IMG/VR virus record: IMGVR_UViG_3300005253_000193
Location: 41,964 to 105,963 of that record
Direction: 5' to 3' (one strand)
Length of the DNA stretch: 64,000 nt
Origin: a virus
Shown here: piece after piece, positions 41,815 through 47,751 of the stretch
How positions within the stretch are numbered: the first letter of the stretch is position 1
How the letters are laid out: each line of letters opens with the position of its first letter
Position numbers and translations under genes: made by a program
Notes under the pieces: generated by a model
Database searches by the model: none
What the model was told of the DNA's origin: nothing
Seen by the model: only the letters and a program-made list of their open reading frames with translations

Positions 41815-42067
41815 TTGCTAGTTCCAGAAGGACGTCTCCGTGGCAGGCTAATGGAGCACACCAACAGACAAGGTCTTTGCCACGTAGCTCATGAAGGGCT
41901 GCCATTAGCTTTGGACTCTGAAGCAAGTAAGCACGATATTTCCTGATGACCTCTTCTCTGGTTCCATCAGGACCGATCCTGTAAGGATTGCCCCACTTGC
42001 TCCCCCGTCCAATATAAACGGCGTTCTTTGGTATATCGCCGTGGCGTCTGTTAAGAACCTCAATTAC
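41804..42067 (-). CDS. DUF4326-family protein lacking a canonical in-frame start (absent from the ORF track)
   Basis: AVYIGRGSKWGNPY...LRGKDLVCWCAPLACHGDVLLELAN. The ATG after GAGGAG is out of frame, and there is an in-frame TAG at 42071-42073. Confidence 0.75.
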   Translation of the reverse strand, partial: VIEVLNRRHGDIPKNAVYIGRGSKWGNPYRIGPDGTREEVIRKYRAYLLQSPKLMAALHELRGKDLVCWCAPLACHGDVLLELANDF

Positions 42068-42645: not shown

Positions 42646-42921
42646 TTAACTTGCCCCTCCTGATGAACAAGTATTAGAACTTCGGATCTCGTTGGGGGCC
42701 GCCGGATTTTTTGGGCTTAGGGGGGCATTGGCCGATTTGACAAGTGTGAGTCTCTTCTCGTCGAGCCACTCCTCCTCCAGAACCTTGCCCTCCTTCGTGA
42801 GCTTCTTCGACTGGACCGCGAAACGTGTGCATCCATTGTGTCAGTCCGTTCTGGCAACGACGACCCCGGTGAACCCGGTGACTGTATCCTTCACCATATC
42901 GTTGAGGCGAATGTCGGTCAT
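42646..42921 (-). pseudogene. Small phage protein gene with an in-frame TGA (codon 27) and an apparent frameshift at a C6 run
   Basis: GAAGGAG RBS; MTDIRLNDMVKDTVTGFTGVVVARTD*HNGCTRFAVQ...EWLDEKRL; a GGP-containing tail appears in another frame. Confidence 0.6.
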
Positions 42922-42974: not shown

Positions 42975-43976
42975 TCACATCTTGAAGGACGGAGCCTGCA
43001 TCCACACCCCATCCTTGAACCAAGTATGGGTGGTGACTAGGCTGATGTAATGAACCCGCGCCCCGTCGACGACGATCTGTCCAACGAACTGATCGTTCTT
43101 GATCGTGATGAGCACAACGTCGGGGAAGGTGGTAGATGCTTCCTCCCGCTTCTCCGTGAATTCATCGTCCAGGAGGCCGATGATGATGTTTTTCGTGTCC
43201 TCCCGTTCCGCTTTGGAGACGGATTCAAGCGCATCCCCCAAGCCCCCCAGATTGTCGACTTTGGGGAGAGGACGACGCTGCGGCTCCTTGCCGATGCCCA
43301 GCTTGATTTGACGGACTGCTTCACTTCCATAGCACTCCCTGATGAGAGCTTCCCAAATCTCACGGAAGTACCGTCGGGAGGGGGAACGCTCAATGCCAAC
43401 CAGCCGCCCACCGATGATGATAAGAGCCCCAACCTGTTTGGGCACACGCTCGAACTCGGCCACAAACAAGTCCAGTTCCTTTTGGAACTTGTCCATGAAG
43501 TCGATCAGGTCTCCAGGGCCGCTTAGTCCAGCCTCGGTCTTGAAGTTCCTGATGTTACCCCAGATGGCGGAGAAGTCGGGGTTGGCATTGGTGAGAGCTG
43601 CTTCCCTGAGGGACCAAGGGAGCAAGGAAAACTTGTGCTCACCACGCGGGATAGTTCCGCCTTGGGTTTCCTGGACACACAACGCATTGTCGAAGACTCG
43701 CCTGCCCTTGACGAAGCCACCCTTGCGGAGAGCATGATCTTGAGCTCTCTCGCGGACGAGGTAGGCGGTTTGTGGCGGGACCAGGATCTCCTCGTCCGGG
43801 GACCTTGCGTCGATGTTCAGGTTTCCATAGGTGCTGTTATGAACCGTGGCCCCCTCAGGGCTGACAAATCTGTCATCCTCCAGGTCACTCAGCAGGGGAA
43901 TGACCTGCATGATGCCGACGGTCTGCATCCGCCCAGGGGTGCATCCCCTGAGCATTTCGGAAATGTTGCGGGTCAT
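42975..43976 (-). CDS. ARPP/DUF6569-like protein
   Basis: MQVIPL, AQDH, CVQ..QG, IW..I and FE.VP.QVGA.I.IGG..GIE parallel ARPP-type domains (from memory); GAGGAGG RBS. Confidence 0.5.
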   Translation of the reverse strand: MTRNISEMLRGCTPGRMQTVGIMQVIPLLSDLEDDRFVSPEGATVHNSTYGNLNIDARSPDEEILVPPQTAYLVRERAQDHALRKGGFVKGRRVFDNALCVQETQGGTIPRGEHKFSLLPWSLREAALTNANPDFSAIWGNIRNFKTEAGLSGPGDLIDFMDKFQKELDLFVAEFERVPKQVGALIIIGGRLVGIERSPSRRYFREIWEALIRECYGSEAVRQIKLGIGKEPQRRPLPKVDNLGGLGDALESVSKAEREDTKNIIIGLLDDEFTEKREEASTTFPDVVLITIKNDQFVGQIVVDGARVHYISLVTTHTWFKDGVWMQAPSFKM

Positions 43977-43997
43977 GATGTTACCTCCTCTTATCGG

Positions 43998-44165
43998 TTA
44001 ATTCGCATCTGGCGCATCATCGTCGTCGCCGGTCAACCAATTGAGCATGGCGACCAAACCATCTTCGTAACTCTTACCTTCGTAATGAGTTCCTTGGTCC
44101 TGGCCTTCATTTGCCCAATTCGCTACCCTATCGATCTCATCATCAGAGCGTTTGATGACACGCAT
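43998..44165 (-). CDS. 55-aa acidic protein (absent from the ORF track)
   Basis: MRVIKRSDDEIDRVANWANEGQDQGTHYEGKSYEDGLVAMLNWLTGDDDDAPDAN; GGGGAG RBS. Confidence 0.7.
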   Translation of the reverse strand: MRVIKRSDDEIDRVANWANEGQDQGTHYEGKSYEDGLVAMLNWLTGDDDDAPDAN

Positions 44166-44177
44166 TTAACGTCTCCC

Positions 44178-45815
44178 CTATTCAAACCACCCAAGATCAC
44201 CAAGCCGATGCTCCTTGATGGTGCTGGTGAGGATCATGGTGATAGCTTTCTTGATGTCCGTATTGATGAACAACTTCAGGGCGGAACTCACCAAAGCTTC
44301 GGGGCTGACTACGGGTATGGCTGCGCTGACCCCACCAAGGACCCGGATACCCTCGGACTCGGCCCCTGTAACCGGCGAGACTTGGATCACAGGCGTATCT
44401 ATGCCCATGTCCCTAACTCGCTCCAGGGTGTCGCCGAAGCGGCCAGCCGGGGCATTTTCGTAGCCGTCGGTAATGACGAAGACTGCATCGGGTTCGTGCT
44501 CCAGGAGACCAACCAAGGAAAGTGCCAGATTGGTATCACCCTTGGGCTGAATAAGGGCACCCTGACCATTCCCTCCGACGTAGTGGACAGTGGACAGATT
44601 CGACGCTGCACGCAATACATCCTCGACTGCCAGAGCGACGGCAATGGGATGAAGCTTTTGGGTCTTATGTCCATACATGGACGCCGATGCATCGACTATG
44701 ATACCGACGTTCTCATAATGGAAGGGAAGCGTTTTGGCAACGTCCTCAGCCTTCTTGTCTAGGGCTTTCCTGATCTCAGCCGTCATGCCCATCTCGTAGG
44801 CGTAGATGTACAGCTTGACGGCATCATGCTTGAGAGGATCGAAGGCAACCTCGACACCTTCCCGTTTGGCTTGGGCCTGTACGTTGATACGTTGCTTGGA
44901 AGACATCTGGTCCTTAGCCAGCTCAAGGACTTCCCCACTTTTCACTTCCTTGTGGAACTGTCCACGGATTCCCTCCAGGACCTCTGGGGGAAGCCTTTCA
45001 CCCTTGCTCAGATCATTACGCGCCTTGCGTACAGCCGCAATGATTGGAGCATCAGGATTTTCCGTTACATAGGGAACGGAAGATCCCAAGGCGTAGGCGA
45101 TGGCCAAACGAGACTCGATGCCGGGGGAAGGAAAACCAGGAATATATCTGTAAACATTTTCCCTGATCAGTTTGGTCTCATCCGGCTCCCACTCCTGATA
45201 AGGGCGTTGAAGAATGGAGCGAATGACACCGGACAACTTCTGGCCCCACACATGTCGGAGGATTGCCCCGTACTTGCGTCGATACCTGACTGCCCTCATT
45301 TCGAGGGAACCCACCGCCCCGGTATGGAGAAGGTGGCGGAGGATCAGCTTCCTCGTCCGCATGTTGTTGATCCTGGCCTGCCCAGCCATGACAAACGTCC
45401 TGAGCTGGCGCGGGACGGTGATCCCGTCGCACAGATATTCCAGGAGATTCCGCTCCATCTCGGCGTGATGCTTTTTGGTGGTCTGAAGCATCCCTCCGCT
45501 GTGCTTATCCGAAAGCAGGCGAAGGATGCCTTGCTGCCTCGACCTGTCCATGACACCCGGCAGGGCCAAGACCGCACCATATAGGAGGCGGTCGTACAGG
45601 AACATCTTTTTGTGCGCCTCCAACTCGGCGGCTTCCTGTTCCTCCTTGGAGTTGTAGAAGGTCGCTCGGCCCTTGGCGGTGATCACGAAGTCCAGAAAGG
45701 ACTCCAGGTCCTTTGAAAGACTGACGAACTGGCTGTTGGGAAGATGGATGGGAACCATAAGCTGGCTCCTGACGGCGGGCAGAGACGCGGACACTGCGGG
45801 GATGTTCTGGTTCAT
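44178..45815 (-). CDS. Helical N-domain + C-terminal vWA protein (Ro60/TROVE-like architecture)
   Basis: MIDAS residues IIVDASASM, GDT, VITDGYEN; 545 aa; basic helical N-terminal ~360 aa with an early TFY motif. Confidence 0.65.
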   Translation of the reverse strand: MNQNIPAVSASLPAVRSQLMVPIHLPNSQFVSLSKDLESFLDFVITAKGRATFYNSKEEQEAAELEAHKKMFLYDRLLYGAVLALPGVMDRSRQQGILRLLSDKHSGGMLQTTKKHHAEMERNLLEYLCDGITVPRQLRTFVMAGQARINNMRTRKLILRHLLHTGAVGSLEMRAVRYRRKYGAILRHVWGQKLSGVIRSILQRPYQEWEPDETKLIRENVYRYIPGFPSPGIESRLAIAYALGSSVPYVTENPDAPIIAAVRKARNDLSKGERLPPEVLEGIRGQFHKEVKSGEVLELAKDQMSSKQRINVQAQAKREGVEVAFDPLKHDAVKLYIYAYEMGMTAEIRKALDKKAEDVAKTLPFHYENVGIIVDASASMYGHKTQKLHPIAVALAVEDVLRAASNLSTVHYVGGNGQGALIQPKGDTNLALSLVGLLEHEPDAVFVITDGYENAPAGRFGDTLERVRDMGIDTPVIQVSPVTGAESEGIRVLGGVSAAIPVVSPEALVSSALKLFINTDIKKAITMILTSTIKEHRLGDLGWFE

Positions 45816-45841
45816 GGTCAGTTCCCTTTATCCAAACAAGA

Positions 45842-45918
45842 GGCCCGGTAAGGTCGTTCGTCAGTTTTGCGTAGACACTCCTGAAGTGTATGCTGTACTG
45901 ACAGACTAGTTCCGGGCC
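45842..45918 (-). ncRNA. Structured RNA unit 1 (77 nt) of a three-unit array
   Basis: GGCCCGG-AACTA-GTC-T-GTCAGT-ACA-GCAT-ACAC-TTCAGGA-GTGT-CT-ACGC-AAA-ACTGAC-GAAC-GAC-CTTA-CCGGGCC; nested stems. Confidence 0.75.
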
Positions 45919-45941
45919 ACTTGGTCGTTCATTTTATTACA

Positions 45942-46022
45942 GTCCGGTAAGGTTGTTCGTCGTGGTGCGTCATTGATCGACTTCAACGTCGAGGATGCTG
46001 TAACGGCGATCTAGTTCCGGAC
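45942..46022 (-). ncRNA. Structured RNA unit 2 (81 nt)
   Basis: GTCCGG-AACTA-GAT-CGCCGT-TACA-GCATC-C-TCGAC-GTTGAA-GTCGA-TCAAT-GACGC-ACC-ACGACG-AACAAC-CTTA-CCGGAC. Confidence 0.75.
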
Positions 46023-46047
46023 CTTTTTTAACAATTGGTTTAGGCGA

Positions 46048-46169
46048 GCCGGTAAGGATGTACGTTGTATTTGGTGGATGTGATTGGAATCGAACCAATT
46101 ACACACTGATTGAAGTCAGTTGCTCTACCGAATGAGCTACATATCCTGTAACAACGTTCTAGTTCCGGC
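46048..46169 (-). ncRNA. Structured RNA unit 3 (122 nt) containing a full tRNA fold
   Basis: GCCGG-AACTAGA-ACGTTGT-TACA-[tRNA]-AAT-ACAACGT-ACATC-CTTA-CCGGC. Confidence 0.8.
46072..46146 (-). tRNA. tRNA-like cloverleaf, apparent anticodon UCA in an abnormal 6-nt loop, encoded CCA
   Basis: GGATATG TA GCTC ATTCGGTA GAGC A ACTGA CTTCAA TCAGT GTGTA ATTGG TTCGATT CCAAT CACATCC A CCA. Confidence 0.8.
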
Positions 46170-46247
46170 CCTCCCAGCAACAAAGGAGTTGAAAATGGCG
46201 GGAGCCACTTCCATTGGGATGGTCTGCCAAAACCACCACCAAAAATG

Positions 46248-46277
46248 ATACTACTACGCCCCCAAATGCTTTGGCAA
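46248..46277 (-). promoter_or_regulatory. Sigma70-type promoter for the RNA array/vWA operon
   Basis: TTGCCA-N18-TAGTAT with an AT-rich UP-like tract upstream. Confidence 0.55.
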
Positions 46278-46314
46278 CAGATTTTTTTAACTTAATTTAT
46301 ATACACTATAGTTC

Positions 46315-47751
46315 CTAATCCACATCTGACTTGGGGCATACTTCTTCAAGTAGATCCCAGTAATCGCTCATCATCATATGGGAACTAAGAACAAACTGAC
46401 CAAGTGTATAGTTCTGGGAAATCAGAATTGTAAAGTTATCCATGTCGGTTCTTGCATTGGACACGAACAGGCGGGCCAAACCCATCCTTTTCTCTTGTGG
46501 TGACTGACTATATGTTATGACACAATCAACAGTTGCTACCTTGGAAATGTCTTCCGCCGCATGTATGTCACGCACCTTGGATGATTTTACTCCTTCCTTG
46601 CTAGACTGAGAAGCCACCACGGCAGCAACATTTAATTCTACGGCCAGTCCCCTTATATCGACATAGATGTTCCCAAGGTCCCTCCGATAGTTTCGTGGGT
46701 CAATCTTCATGAGATCCGGATAATCAATGAGCAGCAGGTCTGGCCTCCACCCTTCTATTACACTAAGGAGGTCTAGGAATCCTCTCAACTCATTGACAGT
46801 TAGTTGTCCCGTTGGGAATTGCTTAACCAATAATTTCCTTTTTAAACGGTCTTCCCAGAAGTCCATTTCGTCCCTTATGTGCTTCTCAATTTCAGGGTCT
46901 TGAAGGGCTATATCTGGATTTATTTTCACACGTTCAAAGTCCAAGAACTCCCCGGTTCTGCTATCTTCCTTGAGAATTGTATTTACTATGGGTTCCCTTG
47001 AGCTTCCATATCTTTTGGGAATAGAGAATAGACTCTGAAAATACCTTCCCATAATTTTCTTTTCAGACATTTCCATGGTAACATGACAGACGCGCTTGCC
47101 TTGCAGCATGGCCATCTTTGCCAAATGCATCAGCCACCAAGTTTTTCCTCTTTTCATGAAGGCTATAAGCAGAAGGATTTCCCCCGGCGACGGACCAAGC
47201 TCGTGGAAGTCAAGTTCCTTAATACCAGTAGCGATAGCTTGGCTGGAAGCATCCAGGAAGCTCAGACTCTTGTTCAGATCTGTGAACCAAGTACCGGGGG
47301 TAAACAAATCAGCTCTCGGCTTTGCTACCTTGGTGAGTATTTCCTCCACTTCGGTTAAGTTTTTGTCGTCTTCCTCCTGTAGCATTTCGCCAGCTTCAAT
47401 AATACTGGCCTTGAGCCGCTGTCTTCTGATGAAGTCGTTGACACGATTGAGGGTATAGTCTGCCTGAACCGAGTCCTGGGATTCGTAAAGATTTTGTAGG
47501 ATGAGATCGTAGGCTGCCGCCTTGCGTTCATTTTTTCCCTCAAGGATAGTATCAAATACAGTGGCAAGCTCTCCTTCAGGAGCTTTACCCTCGGTATCAA
47601 GGAAATCATATATCCCCGCCGCAACCTGTCTATATTCCCCCTCGAAGAGGGATAGTTCAACCGTATTGCGAATGATCTTCCCACTCTCATAGTCAAATGC
47701 GAGCAGGATGAGAAGGTTCTGCTGTAGTAGATTGCCTAGCCCGTCAGGCAT
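46315..47751 (-). CDS. dnaB: Replicative DnaB-like helicase
   Basis: IATGI..LD, KRGKT, TMEM, IDYPDLM, VASQ, AEDISK...D. Confidence 0.88.
   Translation of the reverse strand: MPDGLGNLLQQNLLILLAFDYESGKIIRNTVELSLFEGEYRQVAAGIYDFLDTEGKAPEGELATVFDTILEGKNERKAAAYDLILQNLYESQDSVQADYTLNRVNDFIRRQRLKASIIEAGEMLQEEDDKNLTEVEEILTKVAKPRADLFTPGTWFTDLNKSLSFLDASSQAIATGIKELDFHELGPSPGEILLLIAFMKRGKTWWLMHLAKMAMLQGKRVCHVTMEMSEKKIMGRYFQSLFSIPKRYGSSREPIVNTILKEDSRTGEFLDFERVKINPDIALQDPEIEKHIRDEMDFWEDRLKRKLLVKQFPTGQLTVNELRGFLDLLSVIEGWRPDLLLIDYPDLMKIDPRNYRRDLGNIYVDIRGLAVELNVAAVVASQSSKEGVKSSKVRDIHAAEDISKVATVDCVITYSQSPQEKRMGLARLFVSNARTDMDNFTILISQNYTLGQFVLSSHMMMSDYWDLLEEVCPKSDVD

Follow-up and report, generated by a model that had tools for sequence, protein, structure and literature searches.

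A probable diverged branch of the Ro60/Y-RNA ribonucleoprotein, with modular tRNA-like RNAs and an ARPP-family partner

Ro60/Y-RNA particles have been conserved in organisms as distant as bacteria and humans, and in the latter Ro60 is an autoantigen. Can a locus that sequence profiles do not recognize as Ro60 nevertheless belong to this group? The question is raised by a minus-strand unit at positions 42,975-46,277 of a 64,000-nucleotide (nt) stretch of viral DNA (the window; positions 41,964 to 105,963 of IMG/VR virus record IMGVR_UViG_3300005253_000193), where three short structured RNAs precede open reading frames (ORFs) of 545, 55 and 333 amino acids (aa). A sequence-only reading of this DNA had proposed a phage Ro-like ribonucleoprotein, made of a Ro60/TROVE-like protein with a vWA domain, an RNA class of its own with interchangeable tRNA-mimic heads, and an ARPP-like partner. 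In our analysis the locus is probably a diverged, undescribed branch of the Ro60/Y-RNA ribonucleoprotein. The Ro-like part of the earlier proposal stood, while its restriction to phages did not, since many of the loci lie on bacterial chromosomes.

By sequence, the 545-aa protein matched nothing in Pfam, NCBIfam, PHROGs or the PDB sequences, either as a single query or as a profile of 48 family sequences; weak vWA matches were seen in 13 of these 48 relatives. Its AlphaFold (AF2) model (pLDDT 91.1, pTM 0.89), however, resembled Ro60 over most of its length. In a Foldseek search against the PDB, ranks 1-13 were all Ro60/TROVE structures (E down to 1e-8). Alignment with VIA superimposed model residues 35-520 on residues 28-537 of the Xenopus Ro60 chain (1yvr), with a Z-score of 18.2 and a root-mean-square deviation of 4.3 Å over 406 aligned residues, whereas isolated vWA domains reached only about Z 11. 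The model is composed of a helical, HEAT-like N-terminal ring part and a C-terminal vWA domain, in which the MIDAS motif (D375-x-S377-x-S379, T428, D450) is intact; D375, S377, S379 and D450 are invariant among the 48 sequences and T428 is conserved in at least 90% of them. The Ro60 architecture is thus shown by structure and not by sequence, and the protein is, on its predicted fold, a very diverged Ro60/TROVE-like ring protein, as had been supposed.

The three RNAs could be read in the sequence, on the minus strand between two helicase genes, much as they had been described. RNA3 is 124 nt long with its flanking pairs, RNA2 is 81 nt and RNA1 77 nt. All three share their ends (5′ CCGGAACUAG, 3′ CCUUACCGG), with unit boundaries (G)GNCCGGAACUAG on the 5′ side and CCUUACCGGNC(C) on the 3′ side, and in every unit a first helix is followed by an internal loop, a second helix, an invariant UACAG and a variable head. 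The second helix differs from unit to unit yet stays paired (GUCAGU/ACUGAC; CGCCGU/ACGACG; ACGUUGU/ACAACGU), so that the covariation claimed within this one genome was found again, with one C.A in the CGCCGU/ACGACG helix. In RNA3 the internal loop reads AACUA / CCUUA, and the second helix leads through UACA into a cloverleaf with D, anticodon and T arms in normal order, an encoded ACCA and an acceptor stem that contains one A.C mismatch. This cloverleaf scores above the gathering score of the Rfam tRNA model, but its anticodon loop (CUUCAA) has 6 nt and not 7, and ARAGORN assigns it a 2-base anticodon. That it was copied from any of the three ordinary tRNAs of the phage was ruled out, the identity being about 60%. 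RNA1 and RNA2 carry hairpins, the latter a short one with the closing helix GCAU../..ACGC-ACCA, and a permuted tRNA-like domain is not present in any of the three window RNAs. Besides tRNA, no Rfam family matched positions 45700-46400 of the window at E<=10, the Y RNA and YrlA models included.

The RNAs proved to be members of a family. When only the three window RNAs served to build a covariance model (R1), it gave 44 matches outside the window, 41 of which lay upstream of a homologous gene and on the gene strand; in a second batch all 20 of 20 did so. These positions indicate that the pattern of the window RNAs is beyond chance. The rebuilt covariance model (R2) returned 372 matches at E<=1, all but about five of them upstream and on the gene strand, and in the window it detected just the three known units. 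In the dereplicated loci, R2 found 257 RNAs at E<=0.001, distributed over 94 loci with 1-5 RNAs per locus. All 257 are upstream of the gene and on its strand, at distances of up to about 3 kb and with tRNAs and ORFs in between. Two other approaches were not carried further: alignment of the full RNAs by MAFFT suffered register shifts in AT-rich members and was not used for models, and a regex/pairing descriptor, which was too rigid, missed window units as well as giving false positives and was replaced by the covariance models.

What the family members have in common is a handle, consisting of a terminal helix of 5-7 base pairs (bp), an asymmetric internal loop, a second helix of 8-9 bp with a near-invariant G-C/U-A step, and a single-stranded U-W-C-A-G. 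Conservation peaks at unpaired bases, namely the A-C-U of the 5′ loop, the (A)AC(C/U)U of the 3′ loop and the U-W-C-A-G that follows helix 2; loop positions are 90-100% conserved. In a 125-row alignment 90.0% of the cells were paired, compared with 59.3% after shuffling and at most 46.5% when the partner was slid, although these percentages are inflated because the alignments were fitted to the model. Both sides varied in 15 of 15 pairs, and a 46-row alignment agreed. Real pairing is still indicated by the controls with slid partners and by the variety of pair types, even though the alignment was fitted to the model. The sequence-only reading had cautioned that several stem mismatches left the choice of strand open to doubt; G.U exceeded A.C on the gene strand (194 versus 70), and this excess, together with the orientation of the tRNAs, settles the matter. 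Folding energy is a weaker point here, since the plus and minus strands of the window RNAs fold alike and are not told apart by it. Beside canonical TROVE genes R2 found nothing, even with filters off (best 7.8 bits), which indicates that the handle belongs to the new protein family. The claim of a separate RNA class with exchangeable heads is borne out.

The heads carried by this one scaffold range from full tRNAs to simple hairpins. ARAGORN accepted a cloverleaf in 62 of the 257 RNAs; at least 26 are clearly permuted in the manner of YrlA (T arm, CCA-bearing closed acceptor, D arm); 44 have a T arm only; 11 have a D arm followed by a T arm and were rejected by ARAGORN; and the remaining 114 lack a T-loop, as do the hairpins of RNA1 and RNA2. 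The 62 embedded cloverleaves present 38 different anticodons. About eight of them are of suppressor type (UCA three times, UUA twice and 6-nt 'UC' loops three times), whereas no suppressor-type anticodon is within the 40 commonest among the free tRNAs of the arrays. Examples, given by locus number and position, are L112:2676-2803, L081:3245-3364, L120:2383-2509, L079:3704-3826 and L065:3550-3672.

The Ro-like protein is represented by 546 clusters (50% identity, E<=0.001) from phages, Planctomycetota, Myxococcota, Bacteroidota and archaea. We examined 144 loci, 64 bacterial and archaeal and 80 from IMG/VR, the bacterial ones including Pirellulaceae, Myxococcota and Bacteroidota. The RNA handle accompanies the Ro-like family at roughly 125 of the 144, across phyla, and in 133 of the 144 (tblastn) the Ro-like gene is followed immediately by an ARPP gene, with a median gap of 125 nt. 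The loci are often placed within tRNA arrays, and ARAGORN detected 352 free tRNAs within 3 kb upstream. No further general neighbour of the Ro-like/ARPP pair was found among the loci examined.

In the window, the ARPP-like partner named by the earlier reading is the 333-aa protein, which matches the ARPP-1 family PF20208 far above its cut-off (Table 1) and was modelled by AF2 with a pLDDT of 94.3. Ten positions are invariant among 44 orthologues (Q18, Y50, G51, Q79, H81, C100, E176, R213, Y216 and Q300). The ARPP family was defined by Iyer, Burroughs and Aravind in 2022 as enzyme-like, with a conserved Cys and Gln; its published neighbourhoods are ARG-centred ADP-ribose conflict systems (ARG/Macro/NADAR) and pairs with HIRAN, WYL and deacetylase, and vWA proteins are chaperone-like components of the ARPP-containing ARG systems (PMC9503650). 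The proteins described here share PF20208 with the ARPPs of ARG systems, together with the conserved Cys and Gln that suggest catalysis. They differ from the published contexts in being joined, in a fixed combination, to structured RNAs and a ring like that of Ro60, which is not listed among those contexts (PMC9503650).

How does the locus compare with known Ro60 particles? Y RNAs join a Ro-binding stem to a tRNA-like module, and Ro60 (Rsr) occurs with YrlA/YrlB in Salmonella (rsr-yrlBA-rtcBA), M. smegmatis and mycobacteriophages (PMC4201824). Like bacterial Ro60/YrlA, the loci described here combine a ring protein of about 540 aa, containing a vWA domain, with one or more adjoining small RNAs built from a stem and a tRNA-like module, and in some family members the T arm, closed acceptor and D arm follow the permuted order of YrlA. 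Unlike YrlA, many heads are unpermuted full cloverleaves joined via their acceptor ends. The arrays hold up to five RNAs, and the obligate partner is ARPP in place of the RtcB/RtcA of bacterial Ro60. The YrlA motif GNCGAAN0-1G (PMC4201824) is absent: the window RNAs read (G)GNCCGGAACUAG, and the family consensus is R-A-C-U. The Rfam YrlA model (RF02553, cut-off 69 bits) was not reached, the best score in related loci being 35.1 bits (L038:3560-3664). A YrlA-like RNA situated just upstream of a canonical TROVE gene in a metagenome-assembled genome of Pirellulaceae (L146:1276-1410) scored 35.8 bits against the same cut-off, indicating that the Rfam model under-detects even canonical partners in this phylum, the Planctomycetota.

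Among phages, the Ro60 of Thermus phage phiLo binds Yrl RNAs and has been described as a Ro60 homolog of canonical architecture (PMC12135203), and a jumbo-phage TROVE is mentioned in PMC7824862. Like phiLo (PDB 9KOP, 9L5Y; Yrl1/Yrl2), the window would pair a phage-encoded Ro60 ring with phage-encoded Y-like RNAs, and VIA aligned the two proteins with Z 15.1-15.5 over 406 residues; unlike those of phiLo, the RNAs of the window protein form a different family. In the Rsr-Yrn1-PNPase particle of Deinococcus radiodurans (RYPER), the stem of the Y RNA sits on the ring and a second module tethers the effector. A working model of the present locus would likewise place a stem on the ring and add an effector module. 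A link to PNPase, as in RYPER, was not seen here, and the co-encoded candidate effector is the uncharacterized ARPP. Our literature search returned the known work on Ro60/YrlA, phiLo and ARPP, and found no published description of the Ro-like/RNA/ARPP trio.

Several results count against placing the locus in the Ro60/Y-RNA group. None of the 48 family members matched TROVE (PF05731) at E<=0.1, and the TROVE hidden Markov model found nothing in the six frames of the phage, while it detected the D. radiodurans and B. thetaiotaomicron controls; in this the window protein differs from bacterial Ro60 (Rsr). Alignment to two canonical Ro60s by hhalign covered the vWA domain only, a weak match (E 0.03) in which DASASM is in register with the DVSGSM of canonical Ro60. 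The handle motifs (ACU..GU..UWCAG / AAC(C/U)U) are not the GNCGAA of YrlA, and, as the sequence-only reading had also stated, the GGUCCGA/UUGACC helix of canonical Y RNAs is absent from the window handle. The inflation of the paired percentages belongs on this side too. As for the partner, no PDB structure resembled the ARPP fold at E<=0.001 in Foldseek, a wide search by VIA-align reached only Z 3.8 at best, which leaves the fold with no solved structural relative, and the family is one whose members have no characterized activity.

The observed fold, gene linkage, covarying RNA family and frequent placement in tRNA arrays suggest how such a particle might work. The locus would make small RNAs with a constant handle, and the Ro60-like ring would bind this handle, by analogy with the binding of the conserved Y RNA stem by Ro60, which holds Y RNA on the outside of its ring and single-stranded ends in the central hole. 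The variable head would then present a tRNA-shaped surface that recruits, or competes for, tRNA-recognizing factors. ARPP, which looks like an enzyme and whose invariant residues include Cys, His, Gln and Glu, may be a coupled effector that works together with the ring on RNA or on a ribose-containing group, perhaps while bound to the metal site of the vWA domain; the other contexts of ARPP (PMC9503650) suggest action on ribose or ADP-ribose groups. When phage and host are in conflict, the particle could take part in the surveillance or repair of tRNA or RNA. The decoys or repair scaffolds against host anticodon nucleases that the sequence-only reading suggested are neither favoured nor disfavoured by these results.

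Could the units be tRNA precursor cassettes instead, with the handle as a leader-trailer duplex that provides a processing or timing signal, and with proteins that mature, cage or release the tRNAs of the array? The accepted cloverleaves with their 38 anticodons would fit, as would the entry of the tRNA 5′ and 3′ ends into the second helix, the ACCA encoded in RNA3, the position of loci inside large tRNA arrays, and the finding that RNase P cuts the YrlA of M. smegmatis, to which CCA is also added (PMC4201824). However, the 114 units without a T-loop do not fit, the permuted mimics are unable to yield tRNA, the one tRNA head in the window has the shortened anticodon loop and the A.C acceptor mismatch, and two of the three window units carry hairpins only. 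We regard this explanation as unlikely. Quite unlikely, in our judgement, is a bolder version in which the handle serves as a cage that proteins can address and that encloses tRNA-shaped cargo, the ring holding the leader-trailer duplex and ARPP processing the caged acceptor end as a new RNA-end or ribose/ADP-ribose enzyme. If this were true, phages and tRNA-array islands could keep specific tRNAs in store, repair them or release them when needed; they might instead offer decoys to host defences that target tRNAs, and the cargo would include suppressor-type tRNAs.

The Ro60-like fold might also be a mere scaffold, HEAT and vWA parts forming a Mg-dependent, peptide-binding co-chaperone for ARPP and the RNAs being unrelated members of the tRNA array. 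The chaperone-like vWA proteins of ARPP-containing ARG systems (PMC9503650) and the absence of a TROVE sequence signal agree with this; but the structural match spans the whole ring together with the vWA domain (Z 18 versus about 11 for the isolated domain), and the handle recurs with this protein family across phyla while being absent beside canonical TROVE genes, which makes a co-chaperone very unlikely. It is still less credible that the repeats act as DNA (mobile cassettes or attC-like recombination sites) or as cis-regulatory operon leaders and not as trans-acting RNAs, for although paired ends surround a variable 'cargo', the operon carries the units in its 5′ part and no promoter or terminator of theirs is confirmed, and the plus strand folds as well as the minus strand, all 257 units have one orientation to the gene, G.U exceeds A.C 2.8-fold on its strand, single-stranded loop bases are the most conserved positions, units stand up to about 3 kb away beyond tRNAs and ORFs, and neither a transposase nor an integrase is a conserved neighbour.

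As a branch of the Ro60/Y-RNA ribonucleoprotein, the locus would be one that TROVE sequence profiles miss. Its new features are the covarying RNA handle, the range of heads on a single scaffold from full tRNAs to permuted mimics, and a fixed, uncharacterized enzyme-like partner otherwise known from ADP-ribose conflict systems. It would add one family to Rfam and one domain family to Pfam. Because the branch is set in tRNA arrays and carried by culturable bacteria, among them Stieleria magnilauensis, Roseiconus nitratireducens, Thalassoglobus neptunius and Minicystis rosea, it allows direct tests of whether tRNA mimicry and phage-host conflict are linked to Ro-type surveillance.

The source record is a single contig of 105,963 bp from marine sediment, rated complete by CheckV, with tailed-phage genes for a tape measure protein, tail fibre J, DNA polymerase and SbcCD. 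A search for sequencing runs that contain this DNA listed three, all of them DNA runs of marine sediment metagenome from a single study, and no RNA run. On the minus strand the order is DnaB-like helicase, RNA3, RNA2, RNA1 and the ORFs of 545, 55 and 333 aa (Table 1); the unit is flanked by the genes for the DnaB-like helicase and an SNF2 helicase. The end of RNA1 is 26 nt from the start codon of the Ro-like gene (45815).

Table 1. Features of the Ro-like locus and its upstream neighbour, in window coordinates
Feature	Position	Strand	Remarks
DnaB-like helicase gene	46315-47751		Upstream of RNA array; Pfam DnaB_C, PHROG 19
Sigma-70-like promoter candidate, TTGCCA-18-TAGTAT	46248..46277	-	9/12 consensus matches; weak
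RNA3	46047..46170	-	Handle enclosing full tRNA cloverleaf; R2 61.1 bits, E 3e-14
tRNA-like head of RNA3	46072..46146	-	Rfam RF00005 58 bits (cut-off 29); ARAGORN 'tRNA-??? (tc)'
RNA2	45942..46022	-	Handle and short hairpin head; R2 59.9 bits, E 7e-14
RNA1	45842..45918	-	Handle and short hairpin head; R2 57.4 bits; folding z-score -4.25
Ro60-like ring protein (predicted fold), 545 aa	44178..45815	-	Predicted structure; Foldseek and VIA matches to Ro60
55-aa ORF	43998..44165	-	Lineage-specific; weak phrog_6680 match, E 1.7e-4
ARPP-1 family protein, 333 aa	42975..43976	-	Pfam PF20208, 76.6 bits (cut-off 27), E 2.8e-21

Two elements that had been counted as parts of the system did not hold up. The promoter proposed upstream of RNA3 is a weaker point, since such matches are no commoner in the region than in shuffled sequence (3 found versus 2.5 expected). 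In addition, a terminator-like hairpin with a T-run (46190-46213, minus strand) is situated between the promoter-like hexamers (46277-46248) and RNA3, which casts doubt on this promoter; the hairpin may mark the end of the helicase transcript. For the 55-aa ORF, no counterpart was found in the space between the Ro-like and ARPP genes at the 144 loci; it was rejected as a core part for this reason, and is probably not one.

Outside the core, an upstream DnaB-like helicase recurs in 35 loci, which we read as phage synteny. In several phage loci a homing-endonuclease-type ORF (HNH/AP2-like) is inserted between the Ro-like and ARPP genes (L102:5677-6096, L127:5695-6261 and L135:5657-6217). An RNA ligase (PF09414 with a PHA02142 OB domain) follows ARPP in three phage loci, for example at L110:7161-8156, a weak hint of a link to RNA repair.

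In Minicystis rosea (CP016211.1) a canonical TROVE/Rsr gene (Pfam E 1.6e-35) lies about 3.4 kb from a Pfam-negative Ro-like and ARPP pair, the two sites (L147:1378-3075 and L036:3731-6453) belonging to one giant array of more than 45 tRNAs. At L148, L149 and L150, ORFs of 539-641 aa match positions 289-351 only of the TROVE profile (E 5e-9 to 2e-5) and may represent additional TROVE-like families of Planctomycetota that have also diverged.

In the window, the ARPP gene is followed after about 50 nt by a small minus-strand gene (42646-42921) with an in-frame TGA at codon 29. Its homology to Rhodobacter and Brevundimonas phage proteins continues through the TGA, which aligns with a Tyr of RcBaka gp60 at a conserved aromatic site. 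Local readthrough could account for the TGA, as could a nonsense mutation or an error of assembly. General recoding of TGA in the phage was ruled out, since TGA is its commonest stop codon (54 of 114). The UCA-like head of RNA3, with its 6-nt loop, is encoded about 3 kb upstream of this gene.

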